Positions 3,070 to 60,875 of a stretch of 64,000 nt of DNA are shown piece after piece (within the stretch, counting starts at the first letter, position 1; every line of letters begins with the position of its first letter). Origin of the DNA: Minisyncoccota bacterium (GTDB lineage Bacteria; Patescibacteriota; Minisyncoccia; Phycocordibacterales; UBA2100); assembly GCA_018060545.1 (NCBI GenBank), contig JAGOVW010000002.1, forward strand, positions 141 to 64,140. Reading direction: 5' to 3'. The position numbers were made by a program, and so were the translations under genes. The notes below the pieces were generated by a model. That model searched no databases, was not told where the DNA came from, and was given only the letters and a program-made list of their open reading frames with translations.

Positions 3070-4815
3070 CTAGTTGTGCCCGTGCGTGTCGTGCGAGCCG
3101 CCATTCTTTTGGATTACATCGTACTCGGCGAAGTATTGTTCTCCGACCACGAAATTGAACATCATGCCGGAGTGCATGTGTTCAGCGATGTGGCAGTGCG
3201 CCATCCATACGCCAGGATTCGAAAACTCGATGGCGATATCGTACGTATCACCTACAGGAATGAGAATCGAATCTTTCCACACTTTATTGTCGACCGGCTC
3301 GCCATTTATCGAGAGTGTCATCATGCGTTGCCCATGCATGTGGAAAGGGTGCTGCATCGGGTGGGGTGAGAGCGGATCGTTGAATATACGAATTTTAATA
3401 GTGTCTCCAACGGCGTACTTCCAATCGTCAATTGCCATGTTTCTCTTATCGGTCGTCTCATCGAGAATCTGCCAGGTGATGTCTTTGTTAGTAGTCACAC
3501 TGTTCATCTCGAACGTGTGGTCTTCCCAATGAATTTTCTCGCCTCCCATGCTCGCGCCTTCAGCCGAGAGGCCAGCAAGCCATGCCTCTTTCTTTGCTTC
3601 GGTGCATTTGCCCATCCACTCACCATCGGGCATGCGATGGCAGGGAAGCTGGTCCATGGAAGAGCCGAAATCAACTTTTCCTGGGTCCATAGTGAGCCGC
3701 AATGTGCGCTCTGGTTTTTTGTAAAGCCAATCAGAAAATGCGGCAGCCTCTTTGGTTACCCATGCTGCACGGTGCACCGTGTTGAATGTGCGGAGAGTAG
3801 AGACGCCACTCGTGCGAGGCTGCACGTTGAACCATGTCATCTTGTACGACATAGGTCCCAGGGCGAGGTCGTGGCTTGTGTGCGTGAGTGTATACGTGCC
3901 TTCTTTCGGGAAATACACATCCACCACGTAGCGCTCGGAAGGTCCCATGAGTAGCTTTTCAATGAATGCCTCGCGTTCAAACGGGCTCAAGTCGGATGCG
4001 ACGAGCTTCATGCGTGCACCTGGAATGGTGAATTCAAATGGGCGCGCGTTGGCAACGCTCGTGATATTGAGCCGCACTACATCGCCGGCTTGGTACTCGC
4101 GCGAATAGTCGGTAACACCATTGGTTAGCATGATGTTGCCAAACCTGCCCATAATGGCGAAATTCACACGGTCCTTGAAAAAAGGAAACACGGCATCATC
4201 TTCAATAAGAATGTCGTCAACAATCAACGTGTCTTCGGCATTAACGGGCGGCAGTGTGTAGGTATTTGGCTGCACCAGATAGTTTCCTGTGAGTCCCAAC
4301 TCTTGGGCATAATCTTCGCGCACGTGTGGGTGATACCAGTACACGCCACCATCAGGGAAGGAAAGTGTGTACGTGAACGTTTCGCCAGGCTCCACCGCAT
4401 CTTGCGAGAGCCCCGGGGTTCCGTCGCTTTTTACATCCAGTCGCAAGCCATGCGAGTGCACCGTCATCGGAATGTCGAGGTTGTTGGTGAAATGCATCGT
4501 GACCGTGCTGCCTTGGGTGACTTTCACCAGGGGTCCGGGAATCGAGCCATTGTAGGCAATCATGCGGATGGTACGGTTGCCGATTTCTTTGGCCACATAG
4601 CCAGCCTCCAGTGTGTATGAGTCGCCATCCTTGAGCTCAATCAGATGCATGCCCTCCTTGGCTGTGGGGAGGCCGTTGGTTTCGGTGCTGAATGTGTTTG
4701 AGAAAGTGCCCGTTGCAAATGCATAGGAGAGGACACCTGCGGTGCACAGAAGTGTTGCCACAAGGGCGATGGTGGTTGCATGTGATCGCACGGTTGACCC
4801 AATTTTTTCTAGCAT
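3070..4815 (-). CDS. Multicopper oxidase (CueO/laccase-like), secreted
   Basis: 581 aa. Copper-site motifs WYHPH, HPFHMHG and HCHIAEHMHSGMM. N-terminal signal/TM. Confidence 0.85.
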   Translation of the reverse strand: MLEKIGSTVRSHATTIALVATLLCTAGVLSYAFATGTFSNTFSTETNGLPTAKEGMHLIELKDGDSYTLEAGYVAKEIGNRTIRMIAYNGSIPGPLVKVTQGSTVTMHFTNNLDIPMTVHSHGLRLDVKSDGTPGLSQDAVEPGETFTYTLSFPDGGVYWYHPHVREDYAQELGLTGNYLVQPNTYTLPPVNAEDTLIVDDILIEDDAVFPFFKDRVNFAIMGRFGNIMLTNGVTDYSREYQAGDVVRLNITSVANARPFEFTIPGARMKLVASDLSPFEREAFIEKLLMGPSERYVVDVYFPKEGTYTLTHTSHDLALGPMSYKMTWFNVQPRTSGVSTLRTFNTVHRAAWVTKEAAAFSDWLYKKPERTLRLTMDPGKVDFGSSMDQLPCHRMPDGEWMGKCTEAKKEAWLAGLSAEGASMGGEKIHWEDHTFEMNSVTTNKDITWQILDETTDKRNMAIDDWKYAVGDTIKIRIFNDPLSPHPMQHPFHMHGQRMMTLSINGEPVDNKVWKDSILIPVGDTYDIAIEFSNPGVWMAHCHIAEHMHSGMMFNFVVGEQYFAEYDVIQKNGGSHDTHGHN

Positions 4816-5554: not shown

Positions 5555-5582
5555 GAGGAGAGTGTAGCAGTTGGGAAAGGTC

Positions 5583-6235
5583 CGATACAGGAATTTCTCC
5601 CACAGAAAAAAATCGCCGTCGCTCACCTTCGAATCCTGTATCGCGCTACGGAAATATAATCGCTCAAAGCTTCGCTTCGAGCTCATTATTTCTGTGCGCG
5701 ATACAGGAATTTCTCCGACAGAATCTGCTCGACGTCTCTCGCAGATTTCGCCGGCCGCCTCACGCCTTCCCGCATGCTTGCGGGTCCCGAGGCGTTCGCT
5801 TTCGAATCCTGTATCGCTTACAAAATGATAATCGCCTGAAGCTTACACTTCAGGCTCGATGAGAATTTGGCGATACAGGAATTTCTCCCACAAAGTTTTC
5901 TTGCCGTCGCAGAGAAAACTTCGCGGGCCGCTTCGCAGCTCCCCGTGTGCTCACGGGGCCCCGCTGCTCACCTTCGAATCCTGTATCGCGCTACGGAAAT
6001 ATAATCGCTCAAAGCTTCGCTTCGAGCTCATTATTTCTGTGCGCGATACGGCTTCGTCCCAGAATCACGGGCTTTTGCTGCTGCCCATGGCAGCGCAAAA
6101 GGCCTCGTGTTCTTGGACGGCGCCTCGGATGGTTTGCTCGTGGTGCTCGCAAACCATATCCTGCGGCGCTTCGAATCCTGACGCACAGTGCGCCGGCACT
6201 GTGCTTTATCGCGCACTTGTCGCTTTGCTCCTCTG
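5583..6235. repeat. Array of palindromic repeat elements whose arms are copies of the tRNA-Val 3' end (T-arm/acceptor), in both orientations
   Basis: Sense-orientation fragments cttcgaatcctgtatcgcgc at about 5627-5646, 5802-5817, 5972-5991 and 6160-6170. Inverted fragments gcgcgatacagg(aatttctcc) at about 5583-5602, 5696-5716, 5871-5890 and 6041-6051. An 89-bp unit, 5612-5700, is repeated exactly at 5957-6045. Confidence 0.75.
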
Positions 6236-6308
6236 TGCGCGATACAGGATTCGAACCTGTGACCCTCCCCACGTCAAGGGGATGCTCTACCAACTGAGCT
6301 AACCGCGC
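6236..6308 (-). tRNA. tRNA-Val (anticodon GAC)
   Basis: Cloverleaf folded by hand: acceptor gcgcggt/atcgcgc, D-arm gctcagttggtagagc, anticodon loop ttGACgt, T-arm caggttcgaatcctg. 73 nt, CCA not encoded. Confidence 0.8.
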
Positions 6309-11015: not shown

Positions 11016-11894
11016 ATGAAAAAAATTGTCCCACACCTGTGGTTTGATACGGAAGCCGTTGAAGCAACAGCATTGTATACCTCTCTTTTTCCAGACTCTG
11101 CGGTGACCCACGTATCCCAGATTAAAGACACTCCCTCGGGAGATTGCGACGTAGTTTCTTTTACGCTTGCCGGCGAATCGTTTATGGCCATCAGCGCTGG
11201 ACCCTATTTCAAAATGAATCCATCGATATCGCTGTTTGTAGTGTGTGATAACGAAGCAGAAATCGAAGCGGTGTGGAACAAGCTCATTGATGGAGGGAAG
11301 GCGTTGATACCACTCGATACCTATCCATGGGCACAAAAGTATGGATGGTTGCAAGACAGGTTCGGTCTTTCATGGCAACTCTCGGTGAGCGAACATCATC
11401 AAATGGCTCAGAAAATTACGCCACAGCTGATGTTCACGAAAGACAAAGCAGGCAAAGCGAAAGACGCGATTGCCGCATATACCGCTCTGTTTCCCAATTC
11501 ATCCGCCGATATGCAGGTGCCGTATGAGAAAGGCGAGGGTGACGTCGAAGGCTATCTGAAACACGCGCGCTTCACGCTGAATGGGCAACACTTTCTTGCC
11601 ATGGATAGCTCGGGGCCGCACGAGTTTACGTTTAACGAGGGAGTTTCGTTGATCGTACAGTGCGACACACAGGAAGAAATTGATCGATACTGGGCAGCGC
11701 TCTCTGCAGTACCAGAATCTGAAGAGTGCGGCTGGCTCAAGGATCAATTTGGCGTGTCCTGGCAGATTGTGCCAACAGTCATGAACGACATGATGGAGAA
11801 GGGCACACCCGAGCAGAAAGCACGCGTCACCCAAGCGTTCTTGAAAATGAAAAAGTTCGACATCAAAACACTTGAAGCCGCATTTGCAGGCTAG
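11016..11894 (+). CDS. Tandem PhnB-like (3-demethylubiquinone-9 3-methyltransferase fold, glyoxalase superfamily) two-domain protein
   Basis: Two repeats of about 140 aa, each with a PhnB-like signature (KIVPHLWFD..., ITPQLMFTKD...GWLKDQFGVSWQI). Confidence 0.55.
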   Translation: MKKIVPHLWFDTEAVEATALYTSLFPDSAVTHVSQIKDTPSGDCDVVSFTLAGESFMAISAGPYFKMNPSISLFVVCDNEAEIEAVWNKLIDGGKALIPLDTYPWAQKYGWLQDRFGLSWQLSVSEHHQMAQKITPQLMFTKDKAGKAKDAIAAYTALFPNSSADMQVPYEKGEGDVEGYLKHARFTLNGQHFLAMDSSGPHEFTFNEGVSLIVQCDTQEEIDRYWAALSAVPESEECGWLKDQFGVSWQIVPTVMNDMMEKGTPEQKARVTQAFLKMKKFDIKTLEAAFAG

Positions 11895-16825: not shown

Positions 16826-16924
16826 GTGGACCTACATATTACTCGAAATCTTGGAGTTTGCAGGTGTTGGCGTATCAATCACTAATTCGTCCATCTGCTT
16901 GGTTTCTCGCAGGGACTCATGGAG

Positions 16925-16941
16925 CACTCAGCCACCTCTCC
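16925..16941. repeat. 17-bp direct copy of the tRNA-Ser 5' end (cactcagccacctctcc)
   Basis: Identical to 16809-16825. Lies about 100 bp upstream of the tRNA in tRNA orientation. Confidence 0.6.
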
Positions 16942-17027
16942 TGGTGACAAACGACGAGACTATACCACAAATACACCGCATTGGCTTTATTTTTTCACCA
17001 AAAATGCTACACTCGCCCTGTTCGGAC

Positions 17028-17099
17028 GGCCCTATCGTCTAATGGTTAGGACAGCGGCTTTTCAAGCCGTTAATCCGGGTTCAATTCCCGGTAGGGTCA
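17028..17099 (+). tRNA. tRNA-Glu (anticodon TTC)
   Basis: ggccctatcgtctaatggttaggacagcggctttTTCaagccgttaatccgggttcaattcccggtagggtca. Clean cloverleaf. Confidence 0.8.
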
Positions 17100-17283
17100 C
17101 AAAATTAAGTAGGGCAAAGCGAAGCTTTGGGCGACTATACATTTTGTAAGGTCGACCAGGAATTGAAGGCCGGAGGGGCGGGACCCATCAGCAGATGGGA
17201 CGCCGAGGCAGGGTCGTGGAATTTTAAGATGCGACGGCATCTTAGAGTATCCCTGACCAATTCTCGCTAGAGTCACAAATCGA
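17100..17283 (+). ncRNA. Candidate structured RNA or processing cassette between tRNA-Glu and a terminator; identity unknown
   Basis: No ORF. Internal hairpins (cccatcagcagatggg; taagatgcgacggcatctta). Bounded by tagggtcacaaaat (tRNA-Glu 3' end plus trailer) and a degenerate copy tagagtcacaaatc at about 17267-17283. Confidence 0.2.
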
Positions 17284-17313
17284 CAAAAGGAAGTGGACTG
17301 CTCCACTTCCTTT
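17284..17313 (+). terminator. Intrinsic terminator hairpin (aaaaggaagtggactgctccacttcctttt)
   Basis: 11-bp stem flanked by A- and T-runs. Bidirectional. Confidence 0.5.
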
Positions 17314-17631
17314 TGCGTTTTGTGAAGACGGAGCCATGTTTCGTTAGCAAACGAAACGGGCGAGTCCGGCGTAGATTTTGCTAGGAGCGCAGCGAGTTAG
17401 AAAATCAAATGCAGAGCTGCTGGAAAATTCACGTTTGACGAAACGTGAATTATTGTGGCCCACGTGGATCAGTACACGCAGTGATCAACATTCGTGCATA
17501 GACTTCGATTCTAATTATGCCCTGTCCCCTTATGGCCTGAATTAGCAAAGAAATGACACATACTCTCACTTTGTGTGGGCATAGCGAATCAAATCTTCAT
17601 GAGAAGGAAGCTTGATTCCAAGCAGACTAGG

Positions 17632-23300: not shown

Positions 23301-26300
23301 ATGGAGCCAAAGGACACAGCACCCGTGCCTCCTGCACCAGCGCCCGATTTAGATGTGCCTGCTGCGGTTTCACCCGTATCCCAGATCAAACAGAAAGTTG
23401 CGACGCTCATTACGTGGGGTCGCACGCATCCATCAAAAAACACCGCAACCCTGGCACTGGGGGCTGTGCTCTCGCTTCTTGTGGTCATGCTGGTGGCGAA
23501 TGGTTTTGGAAAAGGCATCGCGTTCTTCACGCCCGATACGAATTATGTGCCCGTGTATACATTGGTGAATGACAAAATCTCGAAGAGCGGCGCGATTATC
23601 GTGAACTTGCCAGAAGGTGTGGCCCAAGCGAGTGCGGCAGCAGCCGTGACGTTTGATCCGCCGATTGCTGGCGAATGGATTCCTTCAAAGCTACGTGAGG
23701 CGGTGGTGTACAAGCCATCTGAACAACTGACCGTGGGCAAACACTACCTGGTATCGCTGGCGACCGAAGAGGGTGTCATCAAAAAAGATTTTCTTGTGGA
23801 TGAGGATCCCCGTGTGTTAGACATGTTCCCATCCAAAGACGCTGAAGCAGATCCGGCTTCCACCATCACCATCGTATTCAATCGGCCCATGGTGCCCTTA
23901 ACCACGCTCTCTGAGTTGGATGCACTGGAGGTGCCAGTGGGAATCACGCCACAGACTCCTGGCAGATTTAAATGGATTAGTACGCGTACGCTACAATTCA
24001 CGCCTACATCCGCGCTTGCTGGTTCGGCCAACTACTCGGTAACAATTGGCGATGATTTTGTTTCGATGGATGGGCTTGCGGTACCAGCAGTCACCCATAC
24101 ATTCACCACGAAGCGCTTGCGTCTTGATCAGGTAACATCTGGTGCAATTGTGTACAACGAACCCGTGCAGCTGTATTTCAATCAGCCAATTGATCTGGAG
24201 CGCACACACAGGGAAATTACGCTCACCGATGTGGCAGCAGGAAGAGCAATTGATTTTGTTGCAGCATATGGGCAGAAAACGGTGTACGACCAATCAAGCG
24301 GCACGATGCAGAAAGTTGAAGATCAATCGATCCTCAGTGTGGTGCCTAAAAATTCCCTCAACGGGCATGCAAACGTCTGGCGTTTTGATGGTGTGTACCG
24401 AGTGGTGGTGCAGAAAGCGTATACCGTGGGCGGGGACATTCCACTCCCAGAAGCGGGTTCTGATCCTGCAGCTGCAACCGACATCGTAGCAAGTGGTGTC
24501 CTGAGAGAGGTAACCGCACAGTCAGAGAAATCTACTTTGGTTTCGCCTGCACTCTTTGATCCGTCAGGCACCGTTACCTTTGCTTTCCATGAAGCGATTG
24601 ATATTGGGAAAAGTACGATTCGTGGCAAGGGAATGAAGAAGATTTCCTATGGCGAGACGTGCAAGCAAACAGAGCAAGACGACTACTATAGTGCTGCGTG
24701 CGAAAAGGTACCCGACGAATCCACTCTGGTGATGACCTTTGATGAGGGTGCGTATGCGCGGGGCGAGCAGGTACCGATTACGTTTGAACGGCTGTTCAAT
24801 GCTGCGGGCTACCAAGTGAACAGCGAACCGATCGTATCCACGCTCTCGGTATATCCAGCACTTAAAGTACGAATGATGCCTTCAGATGGTGCCACCTCTG
24901 CAAGTGTGAAAGATTTGGTCGTGTGCTCGAATGCACCTCTCAAGCCACAGGAAGCAACTGCGTTTTACGAGCAGGTAAAGGCCAATAATTACCTGGTATT
25001 TGGCAGGTGGGACAACCCGTACCTAGAGGGAGAGATGAACTACTATGGGGCCGAGCGGCTGTGCGCCGTGGGTGAGTACGTGAACAAAATCGCTTACGGG
25101 CTTTTACCACAGAAGCCGTATACCCTCACGGCGTCTTTTGAAGACGTGTTTGCACAGAAAGCGAGCGTCAACGCCTCACTCGCTACTGGGCGCGCACCGC
25201 TCTTCTATTTGCGGTTCCAGAATTTGCAAAAAATATACAACGTAACGACACCCGAGCACACCAAGCTTACCTATGCGACAGAAAACTTTGATTACGTGAA
25301 TCTTTCCATCTGCAAAGTGTCGCCCGACGCTATGGTGCAATACCTCGCAGCGGAGCCGAGTGAAGTATCCACAAAGCCTACCAGTGCATTTGCGTGTACG
25401 TCGTCGGTAAACGAGCGCATTCAGTTGAAGAGCGACCAGTGGGTAAACCAGTATTTCCAAGTAGATCTGAAACAGTATTTCCCCGATCCGCGCGGGCAGT
25501 ATGTGGTGTCGTTTACGCATCCGCAGTATGTAGACGCGCAGGGGGCAGCGCTGTATGGGCGCACGTATGTGAGCGTGACAAATCTTGCCGCAACGTCGAA
25601 ACGCGTGAAGTGGTCGTCATACGATTACACTCCAGAGACACCAGATAGGACCGACATGGACACCCGTGGTGCGGTGTATTGGGTGAGTCAGATGCAATCG
25701 CTGTTGCCGGTTTCGGGTGCACAGGTGAAAGTGTACAAAGCGGGGGCGACGCAGGAGTGGGGTGGAAACAATCCTGCGGTACCACCGATTCTTGCAAGTG
25801 TAACGAGCACTAATGCTGGTGGGTTTGGTGAGTTCACGCTGATTCCTGATGTGGTGGGTGCCGCTATAACGCACGGAGCAGAATCAGCAGTCGTTTCAGC
25901 CTGGGCCGACACGCTCAATAGCCCCAGCTGGCAGGACGCTCGCCAAGACGAAAAAATGTACCTATACACCGATCGGCCGATATACCGACCGGGGCAAGAG
26001 GTATTTGTGAAAGGGCTCTACCGCATGCATTTCGACGGTGTATTCAAAGTGTTCGACGAGGCAGACATGAAAGTGGAAGTGCGCGACAGCAAAGGCGAGG
26101 TAGTGCTTTCGCAAAAGCGGCCAGTGAGTGCGTACGGTACTTTTTCAACGAGCGTAAAACTACCCGCTGATGCACCGCTGGGTTCATACTCCATTTCGGC
26201 TGGGAATGGATGGGCATCATTTGATGTTGCTGAGTATGTGGGCGCTGCGTTTGAAGCAAAGGCCGAGACCGATAAGGAGGAGTATCTTGCCGGGGAAACT

Positions 26301-29300
26301 GCGCGGCTGGCGATTTCAGGAAAATACTACTTTGGGGTGCCGCTTGATGGTGGGGTGCTTGAGTACAGCCTCAGTGCGCAGAATTTCCATTTCGACAGAT
26401 ACAAGGATGAGTACTTTAGCTTCGGTAATTCATGGTACTCCTGCTACGACTGTGGCTACGGCGATACGTACTTAAAGAGTGGTAAAGCAACGCTTGATGC
26501 GCAGGGTATTGCGCACCTCGAGCAGTCTCTCGATTTCGCGCAGCTCTTCACGGGCGAAACGGGTGGCCAGAGCAAAATATTTGTGTTGCACGGCACGATA
26601 AAAGATAAGCAGGGCAAATCGGTCAGTTTCCAGAAGTCGTTCATTGTGCATCGTGGCAGCTTGTACCTAGGAGTAAAAACAGATCCTACATTTACAGGGG
26701 CGAACCAGGATGTAGCGCTTCGCCTCAAGACGGTTGATGTGCAAGGAAAGCCTACGGCGAAAAGCGGCATCACTGTGGTGGTGAATAAAGTAGGCTGGGA
26801 ATCATACAAACGACAAGAGGTTGATGGCGGATACTACAATCGTCCGCAGCAGATTCTCACCCCTGTTATTACGAAGCGCGCATCAACAAATAGTGCTGGC
26901 GAGTATACCGAGCAGTTGAAGCTTGCAGAGCCTGGCCAGTATCAGATAGTGGCGACCACCGAAGATGGCAAGGGAAATACGGTTACCGGCGTGAGTGACC
27001 TATACGTGTATGGTGCCGGTACGATTGATGTGCGTCCTACCAACAACGCCACCCTAAACGTGCGTGCTGAAAAGACTGATGTGAAAGCGGGCGATATGGC
27101 GCAGTTCATCATCGAGTCGCCGTTCCCGCGAGCAAAGGCGCTGATATCTATAGAGCGTGGCCGCATCTTCACCTATGAAGTGATAGACATCACGCAGAGC
27201 ATGTACCAGTACGAGTTTCCGATTACCGAAGACTATGCGCCCAACGTGTTTGCCTCGGTGGTGCTCTTGGCACCAGGTCCGGCTATTAAGTTTGGGCAGG
27301 TAGAGTTTACGGTAGACAAGAAAGCCAAAGAGCTCACGATTGACCTAAAGGCCGACAAGACCGCGTACCTTCCGGGCGAGAAGGTGACTCTTGCTATTAA
27401 AACTACTGATGCCGCGGGCCGTGCGGTGCCAGCGAATGTATCCCTTGCTGTGGCTGATTTAAGCGTGCTAGCCCTAAAAGGTAATCCAAAGAAAGATCCG
27501 CTACTCTTTTTCTATGACGGGTTTCCGCTCACGGTTACTACCGAAGCCAACGTTAAAAACTTGCTGATGGAAGCAGAGATTCCGACGGGTAACAAAGGTG
27601 GCGACGGTGGCAACCCGGCAGATTTGGCTACACGTAAGCGTGGAGAGTTTAAAGACACTGCTTTTTGGCAAGCAGATGTGATAACGAATGCGCAAGGAAT
27701 GGCTGAAGTTTCGTTCACTCTTCCGGACAATATTACGCGTTGGCAAATTGAATCGGTGGGGCTCACCAAAGATACGCGGCTCGGGGTGCGGTACGCGGAA
27801 TTGCTGGCGCAGAAGGAAGTGATGGCGGTGCCATTGAAGCCACGATTTATCGTACCAGGCGACACCTTCATGCTCGGTGCAAAGATTTTCAATCAGAGTG
27901 CCAATACGCAAACACTCGAGGTGACTTTTGAAAGCGATACGCTTACGTTTGAGGATACACCGCGTGCACGCAAAACAATCAAAGCAGGGGAGAGTGACGT
28001 GGTGTATGTAGAGGTGACCGCACCGGAGTCGGTGCAGAGTGGAGTGCATTCATTTACGCTTTCAGCAAAGAACGGGAGCTATAACGATACGGTGGAGCAA
28101 ACCATTTCGATTACGCGAAACATGACGTATGAGTCTACGGCAACAGCAAACTCAACGAGTGCAGTCAGCGCCAAGGAGTATCTGTACCTACCAGACGGGC
28201 TTCTGAAAGATCGTGGTGGACTCACGATAAAAACGAGCGCCACTTTGGCTGTGTACCTCACGGATGCGCTTACCTATCTATTTGAATACCCATACGGATG
28301 TTCGGAGCAGCTTGCTAGCCGCCTTTCTGCAATGGCGATTACAAAAAAGGCGCTTGCGGTGCCGAATGTTGGTACATCATTTGATCTGCCAGAAGTAACT
28401 ATGGGTGGCGTTTCCTATACAGTAGATGAGGCTATCGCCAAAGGACTTGAGCAAATATACGATAGCCAAAATGCTGATGGCGGATTTGCGTACTACAAAG
28501 GTTTGAAAGCTGATCCATACGTCTCTATCCACGTGCTTAATACACTTATGGATATCAAGGCTGCTGGATACCCTGTGCGTCCGCAGGTCATCAATAACGC
28601 GGTGAGCTATTTGTATGGTCAGGTGTCGTACTTCAAAAAGCAGCAGGGCAGCGCCGATACACTCGTGCTCCTTACCTATGCACTTTCGCGTGCAGACCAG
28701 GGATCAGGAAGTTATGCGGCACTGGTACAGCAGGTAGCAGGCCTTGCTACACCACGCTACCTGAGCGACACCGCAAGCAGTAACTCGCTGGCGTATTTGG
28801 CCCTCATAACCACGCGGGCGAATGTGTCGGCTGCATTTAAAGAAAAAGTATTTGCTGCACTCATCAATAGGGTGGAGATAGATTCACGTGGAGCGTACGT
28901 GAAAACAAATCCTGCCAATACCGGCTGGGCCTACTACGAGACCGCAGAGAAGAACACCGCACTGTTCCTGAAAGCGTTGGTAGCTGATGAGCGAGTGTAT
29001 ACACAGACCGACAGTGTGTTGCGCTGGCTTTTGGCGAGCCGTGCCAGTGACGGCTCGTGGGGCTCTACCAATGCGTCTGTTGCCGCTATTGACGCACTGT
29101 CGGAATACTTGCTATGGAAGCGCGAAACGGAGTCACGCTTTACCTTAACGACCACTCTTGATGAAAAGGAAGTATCAACCACTGCATTTGGCGCTGATAA
29201 CATCCTCGCCACCATTACCACGTTCCTGCCAATTGCTGAGATGAAGACCAGCGCGGCACAGGCCATCTCGTTCACTAAATCGAACGCGAGCGAACTGGCG

Positions 29301-29957
29301 AACACGTTCTATTACGACCTGAGTCTCAAGTACTTCTTGCCGGTAAAGCAGATTGCACCGCGTGACGAGGGTATTGCTATTACGCGTGCGTTCTACCGCC
29401 TGACAGACACGGCACAACAAGAGCCGCTTACGAATGCGAAGGTGGGCGAGGTGGTAAAGGGTGTATTAACGATTATTTCCCCAAAGGAGCGGCACTTGTT
29501 TGCCGTAGAAGACTACATACCAGCTGGCTTCGAGATTGTGGATTTCAGCCTGGCGACTGAAGACGAAGAGACCATTACGAATGCTGTTGGTACTGAGAAT
29601 GCAGCGCCCGCTCTTGCCAGTGCGCAGCCGGTCAGGCGTTCGATAACGGAGCGCATACTCGGCAATTCGCACACACAAGTGGCGGGCGCGGGAATCCTTG
29701 GGGGATCGCTGGCGCCTACGGCATCCGCACGCCGCGCGCCGGTATATCAAACGTTCTACCCAGACTTCGACGAGCTACACGATGATCGCATCTTCTTATT
29801 TGCAGAACATCTTGCACCGGGCGCCTATACGTATGAGTACTACCTGCGCGCCACGACGCCCGGCGCATTTAGCCATCTGCCTGCAGTGGCGAGCGATCTG
29901 TACTTCCCAGAAAACTTTGGCAGAACAGCAGGCTCAACGTTTACGGTAGAACAGTAG
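23301..29957 (+). CDS. Alpha-2-macroglobulin family protein (bacterial A2M, YfhM/ECAM-like), unusually large, N-terminal TM anchor
   Basis: 2218 aa. N-terminal TM segment, repeated beta-rich MG-like domains. Thioester-type motif YPYGCSEQLASRL (Cys-x-Glu-Gln) at about nt 28300. PBP1C gene adjacent. Confidence 0.8.
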   Translation: MEPKDTAPVPPAPAPDLDVPAAVSPVSQIKQKVATLITWGRTHPSKNTATLALGAVLSLLVVMLVANGFGKGIAFFTPDTNYVPVYTLVNDKISKSGAIIVNLPEGVAQASAAAAVTFDPPIAGEWIPSKLREAVVYKPSEQLTVGKHYLVSLATEEGVIKKDFLVDEDPRVLDMFPSKDAEADPASTITIVFNRPMVPLTTLSELDALEVPVGITPQTPGRFKWISTRTLQFTPTSALAGSANYSVTIGDDFVSMDGLAVPAVTHTFTTKRLRLDQVTSGAIVYNEPVQLYFNQPIDLERTHREITLTDVAAGRAIDFVAAYGQKTVYDQSSGTMQKVEDQSILSVVPKNSLNGHANVWRFDGVYRVVVQKAYTVGGDIPLPEAGSDPAAATDIVASGVLREVTAQSEKSTLVSPALFDPSGTVTFAFHEAIDIGKSTIRGKGMKKISYGETCKQTEQDDYYSAACEKVPDESTLVMTFDEGAYARGEQVPITFERLFNAAGYQVNSEPIVSTLSVYPALKVRMMPSDGATSASVKDLVVCSNAPLKPQEATAFYEQVKANNYLVFGRWDNPYLEGEMNYYGAERLCAVGEYVNKIAYGLLPQKPYTLTASFEDVFAQKASVNASLATGRAPLFYLRFQNLQKIYNVTTPEHTKLTYATENFDYVNLSICKVSPDAMVQYLAAEPSEVSTKPTSAFACTSSVNERIQLKSDQWVNQYFQVDLKQYFPDPRGQYVVSFTHPQYVDAQGAALYGRTYVSVTNLAATSKRVKWSSYDYTPETPDRTDMDTRGAVYWVSQMQSLLPVSGAQVKVYKAGATQEWGGNNPAVPPILASVTSTNAGGFGEFTLIPDVVGAAITHGAESAVVSAWADTLNSPSWQDARQDEKMYLYTDRPIYRPGQEVFVKGLYRMHFDGVFKVFDEADMKVEVRDSKGEVVLSQKRPVSAYGTFSTSVKLPADAPLGSYSISAGNGWASFDVAEYVGAAFEAKAETDKEEYLAGETARLAISGKYYFGVPLDGGVLEYSLSAQNFHFDRYKDEYFSFGNSWYSCYDCGYGDTYLKSGKATLDAQGIAHLEQSLDFAQLFTGETGGQSKIFVLHGTIKDKQGKSVSFQKSFIVHRGSLYLGVKTDPTFTGANQDVALRLKTVDVQGKPTAKSGITVVVNKVGWESYKRQEVDGGYYNRPQQILTPVITKRASTNSAGEYTEQLKLAEPGQYQIVATTEDGKGNTVTGVSDLYVYGAGTIDVRPTNNATLNVRAEKTDVKAGDMAQFIIESPFPRAKALISIERGRIFTYEVIDITQSMYQYEFPITEDYAPNVFASVVLLAPGPAIKFGQVEFTVDKKAKELTIDLKADKTAYLPGEKVTLAIKTTDAAGRAVPANVSLAVADLSVLALKGNPKKDPLLFFYDGFPLTVTTEANVKNLLMEAEIPTGNKGGDGGNPADLATRKRGEFKDTAFWQADVITNAQGMAEVSFTLPDNITRWQIESVGLTKDTRLGVRYAELLAQKEVMAVPLKPRFIVPGDTFMLGAKIFNQSANTQTLEVTFESDTLTFEDTPRARKTIKAGESDVVYVEVTAPESVQSGVHSFTLSAKNGSYNDTVEQTISITRNMTYESTATANSTSAVSAKEYLYLPDGLLKDRGGLTIKTSATLAVYLTDALTYLFEYPYGCSEQLASRLSAMAITKKALAVPNVGTSFDLPEVTMGGVSYTVDEAIAKGLEQIYDSQNADGGFAYYKGLKADPYVSIHVLNTLMDIKAAGYPVRPQVINNAVSYLYGQVSYFKKQQGSADTLVLLTYALSRADQGSGSYAALVQQVAGLATPRYLSDTASSNSLAYLALITTRANVSAAFKEKVFAALINRVEIDSRGAYVKTNPANTGWAYYETAEKNTALFLKALVADERVYTQTDSVLRWLLASRASDGSWGSTNASVAAIDALSEYLLWKRETESRFTLTTTLDEKEVSTTAFGADNILATITTFLPIAEMKTSAAQAISFTKSNASELANTFYYDLSLKYFLPVKQIAPRDEGIAITRAFYRLTDTAQQEPLTNAKVGEVVKGVLTIISPKERHLFAVEDYIPAGFEIVDFSLATEDEETITNAVGTENAAPALASAQPVRRSITERILGNSHTQVAGAGILGGSLAPTASARRAPVYQTFYPDFDELHDDRIFLFAEHLAPGAYTYEYYLRATTPGAFSHLPAVASDLYFPENFGRTAGSTFTVEQ

Positions 29958-56369: not shown

Positions 56370-57692
56370 ATGAATACCTCAAGTCCTTTTCAGCTCATCT
56401 TGCTCGGAGTATTCGGACTCCTGGGCGCTGGTGGTGTACTTTTCTTTGCATTGGGTGGGGGATTGGGCGGCGCTACAGAAGTGGTGGGGCCAGTACTGAT
56501 TTGGGGGACCCTCGATGCTGCGCCCTTTGAGCAGGTGATTAGCGGCATGGCTGAAGACGATCGCCGCTTGGCACAAGTGGCATATGAGAGGCACGATGCC
56601 CGAAATTTTTACAGTGAACTAGCGAATGCTATTGCGAGTGATCGCGGGCCGGATCTTATCCTTATCTCTCACGAATACTTGGTGCAACATTCCGACAAGC
56701 TACTTGCTATTCCATATGAATCACTGCCCCGACGTACGTTCGAAGAGAGCTTTGTAGACCAGGGTTCACTCTTTCTCAATGAGCAGGGTGTTCTTGGTAT
56801 ACCGATAGCCCTTGACCCACTGGTGATGTATTGGAACAAAGACATGATTGCCGCTGCAGGATACGCACTGGCTCCACAGTACTGGGATGAACTGTTTACA
56901 CTCGCCGAGCGCATCACCAAGCGCGATGATGCCAACAACATTCAGAAAAGTGTCATTGCCTTTGGCGAATACCAAAATGTTGCTCATGCAAAAGATATTC
57001 TTGCAGCACTCATACTTCAAGCGGGAGGTGAGATAACCTACCAAGATTCTCAGGGGCGCATTGTGCCGAGTCTTGCGTCTACAAATGCCGAGAAAACACA
57101 ACAGCCAGCACAGAGTGCGTTGCGTTTTTACACGGAGTTCGCCAACCCCAGCAAGAGCAAGACCTACTCGTGGAATCGCTCATTGCCCAATTCGCGCGAC
57201 GCATTTGCTGCGGGGGACGTAGCGCTATACATCGGCTTTGCCAGTGAATTGAATCTCTTGCGGTCACAGAATCCAAATCTAAATCTTGGCGTCGCTCCGA
57301 TTCCTCAAATTCGTGGAGGAGGGAAGACAGTCACCTACGGGGAAATGCAGGCGTTTGCCATTCCTCGAGGTTCTTTGAACCCTGCAGGTGCACGCTTGGT
57401 ATCGTTCGTTCTCGCGGCGGCAACACCGTCTCAGGTGCTGGCATCAGTGCGTGGTACTCCGTCCCCAAACCGTCAGGCTCTCGCCGACAATGCAGCGAGT
57501 AGTACAGCATCAACAGCAGATGCCGTCTTCAGGGAAGCTGCGCTTATTTCACGCGGGTGGTATGACCCCAATCCATTGCGCACAGAGCAGGTGTTTCGTG
57601 GCATGATAGAGGGCGTAACCTCGGGCGCCCTCAGATTAGGCGATGCTATACTGGAAGGCGACAAGGCTCTCCTGGAGCTCGTCAGTCAATAG
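56370..57692 (+). CDS. ABC transporter substrate-binding protein (family 1, sugar-type)
   Basis: 440 aa. N-terminal TM/signal. Typical SBP_bac_1 fold motifs. Confidence 0.65.
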   Translation: MNTSSPFQLILLGVFGLLGAGGVLFFALGGGLGGATEVVGPVLIWGTLDAAPFEQVISGMAEDDRRLAQVAYERHDARNFYSELANAIASDRGPDLILISHEYLVQHSDKLLAIPYESLPRRTFEESFVDQGSLFLNEQGVLGIPIALDPLVMYWNKDMIAAAGYALAPQYWDELFTLAERITKRDDANNIQKSVIAFGEYQNVAHAKDILAALILQAGGEITYQDSQGRIVPSLASTNAEKTQQPAQSALRFYTEFANPSKSKTYSWNRSLPNSRDAFAAGDVALYIGFASELNLLRSQNPNLNLGVAPIPQIRGGGKTVTYGEMQAFAIPRGSLNPAGARLVSFVLAAATPSQVLASVRGTPSPNRQALADNAASSTASTADAVFREAALISRGWYDPNPLRTEQVFRGMIEGVTSGALRLGDAILEGDKALLELVSQ

Positions 57693-57696
57693 ACAT

Positions 57697-58041
57697 ATGA
57701 AACTCCAACAAATCACCGTTCATCTCGCTGCGCTCGCTCTTGTGTGCCTCCCTGTTGCCGCTTCTGCGGCGGGCGGTACCCTTGAAAGTCCTCTTCGTTT
57801 CAATACGATTGCAGAATTCGTTGAAGGGCTGCTTCGAGCCGTGGTGTACATCGCGCTCCCGATCATCTCGCTTTTTATCGTGTATGCAGGATTTAAGTTT
57901 GTCACTGCGCAAGGGAACTCAGATAAAATTAGTGCAGCGCGTGACAACTTTCTGTACGTCGTCATTGGTGCGATCCTTATCCTGGGTGCGTGGGCGATTG
58001 CTCAGCTTATTGGCGGTACTATCAATGAGCTCCGTGGCTAG
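57697..58041 (+). CDS. VirB2/TrbC-like small two-TM 'pilin' protein (paralog 1 of 4)
   Basis: Signal peptide plus two hydrophobic helices, about 115 aa. Belongs to a tandem paralog array. Confidence 0.55.
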   Translation: MKLQQITVHLAALALVCLPVAASAAGGTLESPLRFNTIAEFVEGLLRAVVYIALPIISLFIVYAGFKFVTAQGNSDKISAARDNFLYVVIGAILILGAWAIAQLIGGTINELRG

Positions 58042-58042
58042 T

Positions 58043-58423
58043 ATGCGATACGTAGTGGTGGCCTCCACACTTCTCCTTATGCCAGCGGTAGCGTTTGCTG
58101 CGCCGTCTACCTTTAAAGAACTCGTGGATCGGCTCGTCGTGCTAATGGATCTCCTGGTGCCACTACTTATTACGGTGGCGCTTGTTTTTTATCTATTCGG
58201 TATTTCACAGAACGTGCTTAACTTTGCTGATCAAAAAGGTGGCAATGAGAAGATGAAGGCGTATATGCTGTATGGCGTGCTTATTTTATTTGTCATGGTT
58301 TCAATCTGGGGGATATTGCGCCTGATGTCTGACACACTCTTTTCAACAAGTGGTACGGCTGATTTTCTCGCAGAGCCTTCAGACAGCGCTTTCGATATTG
58401 ATTGCGGGCTGGGTGAGTGCTAG
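58043..58423 (+). CDS. VirB2/TrbC-like small two-TM 'pilin' protein (paralog 2)
   Basis: MRYVVVASTLLLMPAVAFA signal. ...LFVMVSIWGILRLM is shared with paralog 3. Confidence 0.55.
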   Translation: MRYVVVASTLLLMPAVAFAAPSTFKELVDRLVVLMDLLVPLLITVALVFYLFGISQNVLNFADQKGGNEKMKAYMLYGVLILFVMVSIWGILRLMSDTLFSTSGTADFLAEPSDSAFDIDCGLGEC

Positions 58424-58581
58424 CAAAGAGCTTCGACTCGTTTGCCCCAAAGGGATACGTGTTCGCCTCGCTCCCTTTCCCCTAAAGGGATAAGTGTTCG
58501 CTTCGCTCCCTTTCCTTATCCACACAGGGGTGTCGCATTTGCCCTTAAGTAACGTACCATTCCTGTATACAACGTAATTTA

Positions 58582-58959
58582 ATGATATTGCCCTATATGC
58601 GAAAGCACTTTATGAATCCTGCGCTTCTGGCTGTTGCAGCGCTTTTCTCTCCAGTTCTTGCGAGCGCCGCAGGTCTCGCTGATACGCTCAACCTCGTTCA
58701 GGGGTTCCTCAGTGCATTGGTGCCGATGATTATCACCATTGCAATCATCGTATTCTTCTGGGGTTTGGTGAAGTACTTGATGGAAGTTGGAGACAAAAAA
58801 TCGGAAGGTCTCCAGATCATGATGTACGGTATTATCGCTCTCTTCGTGATGGTTTCTATCTGGGGTATCATCAAGCTTCTCCAGGCTACGTTCAAAGTAG
58901 GTGATACAAACCCAATTGTTCCTAAGGCGATTCAAATCAGTGACACCCTGCGCCGCTAG
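58582..58959 (+). CDS. VirB2/TrbC-like small two-TM 'pilin' protein (paralog 3)
   Basis: ...IALFVMVSIWGIIKLL motif. Start may be MNPALL. Confidence 0.55.
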   Translation: MILPYMRKHFMNPALLAVAALFSPVLASAAGLADTLNLVQGFLSALVPMIITIAIIVFFWGLVKYLMEVGDKKSEGLQIMMYGIIALFVMVSIWGIIKLLQATFKVGDTNPIVPKAIQISDTLRR

Positions 58960-58971
58960 CGCTAATCCGCT

Positions 58972-59292
58972 ATGGTGGTTGGGCAAAATCTGATGGACAG
59001 GATCGTTACGATCATCATTGATCCGCTGATTCTCCTCATATTCTCGGTAGGCTTCGTAGTATTCCTATGGGGCCTTGTCGAGTTTATGCGAGATGTGGAG
59101 TCGGAGAGTGCTCGTGAAAAAGGGAAGCAGCACATGCTCTGGGGGTTGGTGGGTATGTTTATCATGATTGCGGTACAAGGCATTCTTGCTATAGCGCTTG
59201 ATACGTTCGACATCAATCCGAATGACATGGGAAATGACACCGTCATTAATCGTTCAGGTGGCGGAGGAAACCCGTTTTTCAATGTAAAGTAA
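58972..59292 (+). CDS. VirB2/TrbC-like small two-TM protein (paralog 4, no signal peptide)
   Basis: Two TM helices. Start may be MDRIVTI. Confidence 0.45.
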   Translation: MVVGQNLMDRIVTIIIDPLILLIFSVGFVVFLWGLVEFMRDVESESAREKGKQHMLWGLVGMFIMIAVQGILAIALDTFDINPNDMGNDTVINRSGGGGNPFFNVK

Positions 59293-59322
59293 TGAATTGA
59301 GGAGGGTTATCGAAAGAGCCGA

Positions 59323-59551
59323 GAGCGAATGCTCCCGGCTCCGTCGTTTTGTGGGCGTTGACTTGGGGTCAAGTTGCTAACATTTTTGTTGCTCATCGCA
59401 CAAAAAAGTAAGCACTTCCTCCCCTAGCTCACTCGTTTTCTCCCTCGCATAGCTCGGGATTCATTCGAGTTCCGCTTTTCAAGTCTCCCTCTGCACCTAC
59501 AAAAACGACAGTCGCCGAGAGCTTACGCTCCCGGCTCCTTCGTTTTGTGGG
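59323..59551. repeat. About 40-bp direct repeats bracketing about 185 bp downstream of tRNA-Leu(TAG); the repeat covers the last tRNA nucleotides plus trailer, and an inverted tRNA 3' fragment lies inside
   Basis: gagccgagagcgaatgctcccggctccgtcgttttgtgggcg (about 59323-59364) matches gtcgccgagagcttacgctcccggctccttcgttttgtgggca (about 59508-59551). ttcaagtctccctctgcacc at about 59471-59490 is an inverted copy of the tRNA-Leu T-arm/acceptor. Confidence 0.7.
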
Positions 59552-59629
59552 CAGAGGGAGACTTGAACTCCCATGCCTTGCGGCGCCGCGTCCTAAGCGC
59601 GGTGCGTCTACCAATTTCGCCATCTGCCC
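59548..59629 (-). tRNA. tRNA-Leu (anticodon TAG), long variable arm
   Basis: gggcagatggcgaaattggtagacgcaccgcgctTAGgacgcggcgccgcaaggcatgggagttcaagtctccctctgccca. Confidence 0.8.
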
Positions 59630-59659
59630 AACGAGGGGAGTATACCGCGAGTCTGGTGA

Positions 59660-60060
59660 TTTGTCCGCCTGGGGTCATGCATTGAGCGAAAGTATGCTGG
59701 CCCGGTAAGGTTTGCCGCGTTGCGGGCCGGGCAATCCCTGCCGGAGTTGAGCCTGCCACCGCAGGTCGCTGTTTGTTGGACAGCTTTGCTGTCCGCCCGG
59801 TAGGAGTCTCTCCCACAAAATATCGCTGCAGCGATATTTAGCGTGCCGCCGTTTTCACCCCACGTTACTACGTGTGGGCCTGAAAACGCTTTCGAGTCCT
59901 ACGCGCAACATGCCCCCAGCATGTAGCTCGAGGGCACTCGCTGTGCTCGTGTCCGCCCGGTAAGGTATGTTGCTCCGCAAACCAGGCATACCTTGCCGGA
60001 AAAGTACCTGCCACCGCAGGTGCTGTGTATTCGGACAGCTTTGCTGTCCGCCCGGTAGGA
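59660..60060. repeat. Two units of about 110-145 bp downstream of tRNA-Lys, each ending in an identical 28-bp copy of the tRNA-Lys 3' end plus trailer hairpin (ggacagctttgctgtccgcccggtagga)
   Basis: The 28-mer occurs at about 59777-59804 and about 60033-60060 (the latter overlaps the real tRNA 3' end). Both units also share gcctgccaccgcaggt and gtccgcccggtaagg. Confidence 0.7.
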
Positions 60061-60119
60061 CTCGAACCTACGACCAAGTGCTTAAGAGGCACCTGCTCTA
60101 CCAACTGAGCTACGGGCGG
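60047..60119 (-). tRNA. tRNA-Lys (anticodon CTT)
   Basis: ccgcccgtagctcagttggtagagcaggtgcctCTTaagcacttggtcgtaggttcgagtcctaccgggcgga. Confidence 0.8.
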
Positions 60120-60221
60120 ATTGTTGGTGCGCACCCTAGGTTTGTACCTAGACCCTCGAAAACTGAATCCCGATGGATGTCGAATATTCTACCGCAAAAA
60201 TAGGAATACGGAAGGGTCTAA

Positions 60222-60243
60222 TCTGTGCCGGGAGTGGGACTCG
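60222..60243. repeat. 22-bp direct copy of the tRNA-Leu(TAA) 3' end plus trailer (tctgtgccgggagtgggactcg), about 175 bp downstream of the gene
   Basis: Identical to 60396-60417. Confidence 0.7.
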
Positions 60244-60399
60244 GTCAGGAATAATCTGATCGCCGTCGCAACCAGATTTTCACGACCCTGGCTCGCGGCC
60301 GCGCGTGCTCGCGCGGCATCGCTGTGCCTTTCGAGTCACACCCGCACCGTGCGCAGGCACGGTGCTTCGTAGCAGGCCTACTTTGTAAGTCTGTATCTG

Positions 60400-60480
60400 T
60401 GCCGGGAGTGGGACTCGAACCCACACGACTTTCGTCCGGGGATTTTAAGTCCCCTATGTCTACCATTCCATCATTCCGGC
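60400..60480 (-). tRNA. tRNA-Leu (anticodon TAA), long variable arm
   Basis: gccggaatgatggaatggtagacataggggactTAAaatccccggacgaaagtcgtgtgggttcgagtcccactcccggca. Confidence 0.75.
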
Positions 60481-60572
60481 GTGCTGACACTATAGCAAAT
60501 TGGATTTCGCATGGCAGTCACAGGAGCCCAATTTGCAACACCTGCACCTTCCAGCCATAATAGGCAGTGTTT

Positions 60573-60644
60573 GGCCTGGTGGTGAAGTGGTAACACCGGG
60601 GACTGCAAATCCTCTACGCGCGGGTTCGATTCCCGCCCAGGCCT
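60573..60644 (+). tRNA. tRNA-Cys (anticodon GCA)
   Basis: ggcctggtggtgaagtggtaacaccggggactGCAaatcctctacgcgcgggttcgattcccgcccaggcct. Confidence 0.8.
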
Positions 60645-60798
60645 CAGACTGGAGAGCAACGAGACTGCTCTCGTTGCGTCGGGAATCGAAGCCCGGAGCC
60701 ATGTGTGAGTTTGCGAAGCAAGTCGAACACCCTGCCCGACCGGCAGGCGGGGGCGAGGGTCGGTTCGAAGAAAAGTGCGGCAGCACTTTTACTGAGAA

Positions 60799-60840
60799 GA
60801 TTCCCGCCCAGGCCTCAGACTGGAGAGCAACGAGACTGCT
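60799..60840. repeat. 42-bp direct copy of the tRNA-Cys 3' end plus trailer (gattcccgcccaggcctcagactggagagcaacgagactgct), 171 bp downstream
   Basis: Identical to 60628-60669. Confidence 0.7.
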
Positions 60841-60847
60841 GCTATGG

Positions 60848-60875
60848 ATGTAAGGAGAGCCGCGCGATACATCGC
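60848..60875 (-). terminator. Intrinsic terminator (gagccgcgcga-taca-tcgcgcggctc)
   Basis: Downstream of the minus-strand gene 60897..61187. Confidence 0.5.

Follow-up and report, generated by a model that had tools for sequence, protein, structure and literature searches.

A direct repeat that extends from the T-loop to the 3' end of a tRNA gene is the classic layout of integrative elements that target tRNA genes. Single-strand recombination sites are found in the attC arrays of integrons and in the folded attP of phage CTX and of IMEX elements; in the single-strand transposons of the IS200/IS605 type, an internal sequence by the foot of a hairpin pairs with the cleavage or target site; and the tyrT locus of E. 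coli carries 178-bp tandem repeats, each beginning with the 3' end of tRNA-Tyr. Tyrosine-integrase genomic islands and prophages that target tRNA and transfer-messenger RNA (tmRNA) genes are catalogued in Islander (PMC4383910). Here we describe the segments that follow the tRNA genes in a stretch of 64,000 nucleotides (nt) of a Minisyncoccota bacterium (contig JAGOVW010000002.1, positions 141 to 64,140; hereafter the window). These segments, which we call units, represent a widespread, apparently undescribed gene-less structured family behind tRNA and tmRNA genes of Parcubacteria-type bacteria.

Structured units behind tRNA and tmRNA genes

Seven tRNA genes were called in the 64 kb by ARAGORN and Rfam, all of them with scores of 52–73 bits against the Rfam tRNA model. 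The sequence-only reading of this DNA had reported that tRNAs are followed by direct copies of their own 3' ends, and a repeat finder recovered all five repeats. The Cys repeat (60628–60669 and 60799–60840, 42 nt) and the Leu-TAA repeat (60221–60243 and 60395–60417, 23 nt) are 100% identical, the Lys repeat (59778–59808 and 60033–60063, 31 nt) is 97% identical, and the Leu-TAG repeat (59318–59356 and 59514–59552, 39 nt) is 90% identical; the spacing between copies is 171–255 nt. The Leu-TAG repeat exists as reported, but its coordinates had been about 5 nt off, and only about 5 nt of it copy the tRNA, the remainder being trailer and hairpin; the true copy of the Leu-TAG 3' end is a degenerate one at 59351–59365. 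The degenerate copy claimed for tRNA-Glu was also found (17258–17279), with 19 of 23 positions matching the tRNA. When the last 24 nt of each tRNA were compared with the 400 nt on its 3' side, exact direct matches measured 15 nt for Lys, 19 nt for Leu-TAA, and 18 nt for Cys, as against a maximum of 10–12 nt in 300 shuffles of the same 400 nt, which confirms the earlier observation. The bracketed segments are gene-less as described, with only spurious overlapping open reading frames (ORFs) inside, and the geometry does resemble attL/attR, since the repeat begins at a fixed T-loop position (C56) and extends to the tRNA 3' end. Absent from the earlier description were the inverted arm, which is a defining feature, and the conserved core.

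The segments behind different tRNAs are homologous to each other. They form units of 95–235 nt behind six of the seven window tRNAs (Val, Glu, Leu-TAG, Lys, Leu-TAA, and Cys), with one to four tandem units each and about 13 in total; tRNA-Ser is the only one without a downstream unit, and an ORF begins directly after it. Read along the tRNA strand, a full unit consists of a trailer, a hairpin (H1), an inverted arm (IR-L), the core (Z), and a direct arm (IR-R). Several copies of H1 were flagged as terminator-like, often with a U-run. IR-L is the reverse complement of tRNA positions 54–73, from the T-loop to the acceptor end, and IR-R repeats the tRNA 3' part (positions 56–73, termed b) in direct orientation. 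The inverted copies are exact over 19 nt for Val, 17 nt for Leu-TAG, 12 nt for Lys, and 11 nt for Cys. Core Z, of about 90 nt, is sharply bounded: it starts with AGNCGGAG, continues through H2 (loop AGCA), CGAGNCGGGGTCG, and H3 (loop GCGACGGC), and ends with TATYCGTGAC. IR-L can pair with IR-R and thereby close a three-way junction (folding z-scores down to −6.8); as read from the sequence, it can alternatively pair with the upstream tRNA end across H1 to form a long palindrome. The junctions are fixed. Across about 30 independent cases of metagenomic tRNAs and tmRNAs, the complementarity of IR-L stops exactly at T54, which is 21 nt from the 3' end given by ARAGORN, or 23 nt where CCA is encoded, and the identity of IR-R begins at C56. 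In a simpler form, class S, Z follows a terminator hairpin with an outer stem that is lengthened by a sequence complementary to the final ~5 nt of the tRNA together with the trailer.

Structure alignments were made of 14 units and then of 85. In the smaller one, 86% of the cells are paired, as compared with 67% in shuffles and 39–52% when the partners are slid, and 21 of 28 pairs have changed on both sides. In the larger one, G-U pairs exceed A-C mismatches by 104 to 14 in H3 and by 10 to 1 in H2. The strong covariation among the 85 aligned copies (the metagenome part being among the matches listed, see below) marks an intact, conserved family rather than the decayed elements that had been suggested. 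A comparison that needs no alignment gave the sense strand of Z the more stable fold in 82 of 84 cores, with a difference from the antisense strand of −5.7 kcal/mol on average, and loops and junctions are invariant across contigs of 41–67% GC. The region of the tRNA end, H1, and arm, by contrast, is strand-symmetric, with the sense strand more stable in 24 of 47 cases. Because the core folds in the sense direction only and has a G-U excess while H1 and the arms are symmetric, these results indicate that Z, whether as RNA or as sense single-stranded DNA, functions as one strand with the polarity of the tRNA. In behaviour, H1 and the arms resemble ordinary DNA palindromes.

To follow the family beyond the window, we used a covariance model built from six window units (R1). 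In the window, R1 matches the tRNA-adjacent units only (next best match, E = 0.12); among infB neighbourhoods of unrelated bacteria, 1.31 Mb in total taken from an IF-2 search, no match reaches E ≤ 0.1, and R1 also finds units in relatives of the window organism. A degenerate pattern derived from H3 was searched against JGI metagenome contigs and gave at least 120 stretches, from which 80 loci were kept; all metagenome figures in this text therefore hold among the matches listed. R1 confirms 77 units in these loci. A sense core starts within 260 nt downstream of 45 of their 102 tRNA and tmRNA genes, and an antisense core behind only one, where chance would yield an estimated ~2 of 102. At least 14 isotypes carry units. 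Units also follow tmRNA genes (loci L100, L165, and L169), which ARAGORN did not call as tRNA, and have the same arms, derived from the T-arm and acceptor of the tmRNA; other seeming orphans keep tRNA-derived arms, for example, the tRNA-Ala-type arms in L129. Rfam 15, run on the unit regions and the whole window, reported only tRNA and tmRNA at threshold and nothing on Z even at E ≤ 5–10; the families without a match include ribozymes, IS605-orfB, HEARO, YrlA, and tRNA-like RNAs. Full-text literature searches returned no description of the units, and no matching units were found in viral contigs, phage records, or plasmid records.

Several specific readings of the segments were tried and rejected. 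A small peptide encoded in Z is contradicted by ATGs that are not conserved in the window units and by stems that covary; a hammerhead-like core (CUGA...GAAA) by a motif that is not conserved among units; and a primer-binding site for mature tRNA by an arm that matches the genomic trailer (..AC) and not ..ACCA. The GTGCG before Z, read as the GUGYG of a group II intron, varies with the tRNA 3' end. An arm that arose as a terminator palindrome extended outward by template switching was rejected as a general cause, given that the arm at topA (see below) is complementary to a site ~75 nt upstream of the hairpin and that the arm end is fixed at T54.

Gain, loss, and exchange among genomes

The contigs that carry the exact RbfA of the window are all shorter than 2 kb and end before the tRNA cluster, and the comparison was made with more distant relatives: L004, a Taylorbacteria metagenome-assembled genome (IF-2 49% identical) and the sole useful one among the matches listed in an IF-2 search of genome contigs, IF-2 being too conserved and the others mostly unrelated bacteria; L084–L089 (RbfA 85% identical); L090 (RbfA 65%); and L096 (RbfA 54%). 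In L004, infB and rbfA are followed on one strand by tRNA-Cys, -Leu-TAA, -Lys, and -Leu-TAG, which stand 8, 84, and 45 nt apart; units are absent there. L084–L089 have units behind Tyr (two), Cys, Lys (three), Leu-TAG, and Leu-TAA; their Leu-TAA unit is of type B, as opposed to type A in the window, and the Lys array of L084 is ordered differently from that of the window. L090 has tRNA-Cys in the ancestral orientation without a unit, Tyr without a unit, and a type A unit at Leu-TAA, and L096 has diverged units at Cys and Lys only. Units have thus been gained and lost between related genomes. The same arrays are present in independent assemblies of a related species (L084–L089) and are therefore not assembly artefacts.

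The cores do not follow the identity of the tRNA behind which they lie. The core of a Val unit (V2) is nearest to that of a Tyr unit in L084 (83%), the core of the Glu unit (E1) to a Leu-TAA unit in L090 (81%), and for the window Leu-TAA unit (Ltaa1) the nearest core is that of a Ser unit (80%). Identity reaches 96% between the orthologous Lys cores (K2 and its L084 counterpart). From one species to another, both arms change with the tRNA variant at the locus, as three species show for Leu-TAA. Core similarity thus crosses tRNA identity: cores have moved among tRNA loci, with arms that are always those of the resident tRNA.

Two metagenome loci, L125 and L141, have a unit behind a topA-like ORF, and ~75 nt of the 3' end of the ORF are repeated after Z. 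The two copies share only ~65% identity in DNA, yet each codes for ..TKTIPERCSNK.C.NHNPHK..stop. At the start of the duplicated segment stands GGCA|CAAAA, a site similar to the GGTT|CRAA of the tRNA units, and the arm that precedes Z complements it. The match of this arm to the junction ties the arm to the junction and not to a terminator palindrome, and the duplication reads as the signature of an insertion that would have brought a surrogate 3' end.

Other observations concern the neighbourhood of the units. In L112, two nearly identical 181-nt units with tRNA-Ser-type arms (3082–3262 and 3924–4104) flank an ORF of 183 amino acids (aa) resembling IGPS (3276–3827), the only case seen of a gene enclosed by two units. 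Just upstream of the unit-bearing tRNA-Ser of this locus lies a reverse transcriptase of the diversity-generating retroelement (DGR) type with an in-frame stop (1700–2689; Pfam RVT_1, E = 3.6e-17). A link between reverse transcriptases and units was considered on account of this pseudogene and rejected, no homologue being present in any other locus examined. L124 has sub-threshold matches to group II intron D1-D4 on the minus strand (2384–2477 and 2582–2633; E = 0.057 and 0.54) ~1.3 kb from a unit-bearing tRNA-Ile. tRNA-Cys is inverted in the window and in L084–L089 relative to the same-strand ancestral cluster of Cys, Leu, Lys, and Leu; in L090, tRNA-Leu(TAG) is inverted instead and tRNA-Lys is missing from its usual place. 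Unit-bearing tRNA clusters appear prone to rearrangement. In L084, a 163-aa HNH endonuclease (Pfam HNH_3 and HNH), which may be a free-standing homing endonuclease, is encoded by an ORF (11165–11656) that overlaps tRNA-Leu(TAA) at its 5' end; it is not in the window, where the Cys-to-Leu spacer is 92 nt.

The individual units of the window

The longest array follows tRNA-Val(GAC) (6236–6308, minus strand) and consists of four units on the same strand. V1 (6039–6234) is a divergent type B unit, with an acceptor complement at 6207–6216, a T-arm complement at 6170–6180, a hairpin between them, and IR-R at 6039–6049. V2 (5868–6038; R1 112.6 bits, z-score −6.8) has H1 at 6007–6027, IR-L at 5973–5991, core Z, and IR-R at 5871–5880, and its 19-nt IR-L is the exact reverse complement of tRNA-Val from the T-loop through the acceptor. 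V3 (5694–5867; 113.8 bits, z-score −6.5) has H1 at 5834–5855, IR-L at 5801–5817, and IR-R at 5694–5708. V4 (5581–5693; 31.5 bits) has H1 at 5662–5682, IR-L at 5628–5646, and IR-R at 5583–5592; its first 84 nt are identical to those of V2, and most of core Z is deleted.

tRNA-Glu(TTC) (17028–17099, plus strand) is followed by E1 (17101–17279, plus; 99.1 bits), with H1 at 17113–17132, IR-L at 17154–17167, core Z, and a degenerate IR-R at 17258–17279. Behind it, a degenerate second unit, E2 (17286–17450, plus), was read from the sequence as a terminator-like hairpin with two more, similar to H2 and H3, behind it; the unit has no recognisable tRNA-derived arms, and its match to R1 is weak (17315–17432, E = 0.37). 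The H1 hairpins of V2, V4, and E1 (6007–6027, 5662–5682, and 17113–17132) are built around GCGAAGC, an unusually stable DNA mini-hairpin.

The remaining units lie in the cluster near the end of the window. Behind tRNA-Leu(TAG) (59548–59629, minus), the type B unit Ltag1 (59351–59546, minus) has H1 at 59514–59536, an exact 17-nt IR-L at 59478–59494, and the degenerate IR-R at 59351–59365; a second H1 copy (59318–59340, minus), within the 39-nt repeat that begins at 59318 and ends at 59356, starts a truncated next unit. tRNA-Lys(CTT) (60047–60119, minus) is followed by three units on its strand, where a single one had been noted. K1 (59951–60045) is a mini-unit of 95 nt with two hairpins and then a short helix of IR-L (59991–59999) and IR-R (59951–59964); K2 (59791–59950; 77.7 bits) has IR-L at 59891–59902, core Z, and IR-R at 59791–59805; and K3 (59696–59790) is a diverged copy of K1 (73% identity) with IR-R at 59699–59709. 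The 95-nt mini-units follow the same logic of hairpins, short arm, and tRNA-Lys 3'-end copy without a Z core, and their counterpart in L084 is a mosaic of both, which suggests recombination between copies. tRNA-Leu(TAA) (60400–60480, minus) carries Ltaa1 (60225–60398, minus; 103.7 bits, z-score −5.3), with H1 at 60345–60364, IR-L at 60330–60343, core Z, and an exact 19-nt IR-R at 60225–60243. The inverted tRNA-Cys(GCA) (60573–60644, plus) carries C1 (60646–60816, plus; 71.5 bits), with H1 at 60656–60677, IR-L at 60680–60690, core Z, and an exact 18-nt IR-R at 60799–60816, and then a repeat of the initial 24 nt of the trailer of tRNA-Cys, up to the H1 loop (60817–60840, plus), which is not in L084.

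A mirror-image arrangement was seen at tRNA 5' ends, where the first ~17–20 nt, up to the D-loop, are copied 75–105 nt upstream. Such copies precede tRNA-Ser in the window (16921–16945, minus) and tRNA-Cys in L090 (10716–10890, two in tandem of 88 nt each) and in L096 (10363–10450). The piece between the copies holds the −10-like box of the tRNA, and a second kind of insertion may here supply a new 5' end and promoter. Elsewhere in the window, a run of small membrane proteins is encoded at 57643–59292, the counterparts of which in L084 and L096 match Pfam T4SS_pilin and TrbC; taken with the relatives of RbfA and IF-2, this run indicates that the genome is of the Parcubacteria (Patescibacteria). 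An ORF of 2218 aa occupies 23301–29957.

Origin and meaning of the units

Among described systems, integrase islands share several traits with the units: they insert within the 3' part of a gene for tRNA or tmRNA and restore it with sequence of their own, the displaced 3' fragment remains as a direct repeat from the T-loop, and tandem arrays form at one tRNA. In the units, IR-R likewise runs from C56 to the 3' end and the tRNAs are intact. Unlike the islands, which bring their own integrase and reach kilobase size, the units measure 95–235 nt and carry neither integrase nor cargo; they have a conserved central single-strand fold and an extra inverted copy of the target, and they occupy most tRNAs of a small genome (six of seven in the window). 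Integron and CTX sites are alike in geometry only, in the order of site, short cargo, inverted site, structured spacer, and site, in arrays at one attachment point, and, in L112, in a gene flanked as in a cassette. Of their strand-specific folding the units have a partial counterpart, Z being strongly strand-specific and the IR-L/IR-R helix symmetric. The window shows no IntI integrase with attI and a cassette promoter. The units also lack the GTTRRRY/RYYYAAC core, and with it the R''-L''/L'-R' repeats that place GTTRRRY at the outer ends of attC; their arms are 11–19 nt long and tRNA-specific, their junction lies at the inner and not the outer helix end (with the T-loop part TTCRA inside), and their centre is conserved in sequence.

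The IS200/IS605 transposons with their ORF-less derivatives, the PATEs, and the REP/REPIN sequences mobilised by RAYT are, like the units, gene-less, hairpin-rich, strand-specific, and placed after terminators. IS200/IS605 elements have subterminal hairpins without terminal inverted repeats and insert 3' of a motif of 4–5 nt without duplicating the target site; the units have hairpins at both ends and a junction fixed after GGTT, but 15–75 nt of the target are duplicated. They differ in that their complementary stretch is 4 nt, as against up to 19–21 nt in the arm of the units, and in that the units duplicate a long 3' end of the target; no Y1 (HUH) transposase TnpA was found among the 52 ORFs of the 64-kb window. 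Miniature inverted-repeat transposable elements (MITEs) are defined by terminal inverted repeats and a fixed short target-site duplication, whereas the inverted pair of the units brackets the core only and the direct repeat, of 11–42 nt (75 nt at topA), is the 3' end of a gene. The E. coli tyrT repeats also stand in tandem downstream of a tRNA, each with a tRNA 3' segment, but they form a single locus with no family across tRNAs, no inverted arm, and no core conserved across genomes. Taken together, the units fall outside integrase islands, attC sites, MITEs, and every Rfam family by the features that define these, and resemble the first two in geometry.

We consider it slightly favoured, with a probability of roughly 0.55, that the units are small, gene-less, non-autonomous, site-specific mobile elements that target tRNA and tmRNA genes at the T-loop or 3' end and bring a replacement 3' end. 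The insertion site would be the GGTT|CRA of the T-loop, with the joint between T55 and C56; in class S it would directly follow the discriminator base. The element would carry its own replacement 3' end and terminator, so that the tRNA stays intact, and would push the original 3' end downstream, as happens with integrase-borne islands. Tandem arrays may result from repeated insertion or from unequal crossing-over. The junction-complementary arm could pair with either copy of b, and arm and folded core together are the probable recognition target of a putative trans-encoded enzyme.

Several findings weigh against this reading. No recombinase, transposase, or reverse transcriptase domain was detected in the 52 window ORFs tested or beside units without a nearby tRNA, and the cognate tyrosine or serine integrase for which a search had been proposed was accordingly not among these ORFs. 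No autonomous, ORF-bearing version is present among the ~85 units examined, neither an excised or circular form nor an empty site that matches exactly was observed, and the six contigs of one species show no presence/absence difference. Many units, those of class S, have no IR-R. An insertion that brought a foreign 3' end would make a chimeric tRNA, and it is hard to see how both arms would come to be retargeted. The IR-L/IR-R helix, unlike H2 and H3, has similar counts of G-U and A-C (23 and 21 in the 85 units), and the conserved loops and sense-only folding fit a host-useful RNA equally well.

Such an RNA is the strongest of the alternatives, although we regard it as rather unlikely. Z would be a non-coding RNA module that is useful to the host and has no dedicated mobility. 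Its source would be either the tRNA transcript, extended by read-through of H1, or a weak promoter located in the linker. With the helix of IR-L and IR-R as a mimic of an acceptor/T-stem minihelix, it would be cut out by RNase P, RNase Z, and the CCA-adding enzyme; in a variant, the module would insulate, terminate, or stabilise tRNA transcripts. Copies would arise by local duplication, and the arms would be kept matched by gene conversion between direct repeats and by compensatory change. The sequence-only reading had raised a related idea, that tRNA-like minihelices are processing signals for small RNAs. Part of it fits the data: the core folds on the tRNA-sense strand only, in H2 and H3 G-U outnumbers A-C as in RNA, and the IR-L/IR-R helix resembles an acceptor/T-stem, with the 3' strands of both paired to a perfect complement. 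Invariance of loops and junctions at 41–67% GC, the co-orientation of units with tRNAs (45 to 1), linkers with −10-like boxes (TATCAT and TATATT), and a canonical terminator after E1 point the same way. Against it, a terminator-like hairpin, often with a U-run, sits between the tRNA and Z. Moreover, a processing helix need not copy the neighbouring tRNA, yet the arms are exact over up to 19 nt and share one fixed T-loop end in ~30 cases; cores were exchanged between tRNA loci; the duplicated coding tail of topA carries the mark of an insertion; and many tRNAs in related genomes have no units.

A bolder form of the mobile-element reading, which we judge doubtful, is that of a programmable, nucleic-acid-guided element without a gene of its own. 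The arm (54–73) would act as guide and Z as scaffold, a putative trans-acting enzyme would cut and join at T55|C56, and the arm would be rewritten for each target, so that T-loops would serve as the attachment sites of integron-like arrays in bacteria of the candidate phyla radiation (CPR).

It is very improbable that the units are scars of larger integrase islands or prophages that integrated in T-loops and lost their interior, with att arms fused like solo long terminal repeats. Such an origin would suit a direct repeat that starts in the T-loop and extends to the 3' end, the formation of arrays behind tRNA and tmRNA genes, and the two matching units that flank a gene in L112, but the segment between the repeats is one conserved fold with covariation over its whole length and not two unrelated arm remnants, the unit size is uniform, none of the ~85 units has a kilobase-scale insert or an adjoining integrase, and viral contigs and phage and plasmid records gave no matches. 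Short-read assemblies do break at these repeats, but chance similarity, slippage duplication, or assembly artefact without a common element is next to impossible in view of the shuffle controls, the specificity of the covariance model, the identical arrays in independent assemblies, and the dozens of confirmed matches in the 80 metagenome loci.

The ~13 units make up ~2.3 kb of the 64-kb window, and their abundance in very small genomes implies that something actively makes or keeps them. They explain why short-read assemblies break at tRNA clusters, and they yield false-positive tRNA fragments in annotation. As RNAs, the units would form a new, abundant class of structured RNA linked to tRNA and tmRNA 3' ends. 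As mobile elements, they would be smaller than any other known integrative element that targets tRNA genes, and a natural case in which the choice of target resides in a complementary arm beside a conserved fold, which would be relevant to programmable insertion.

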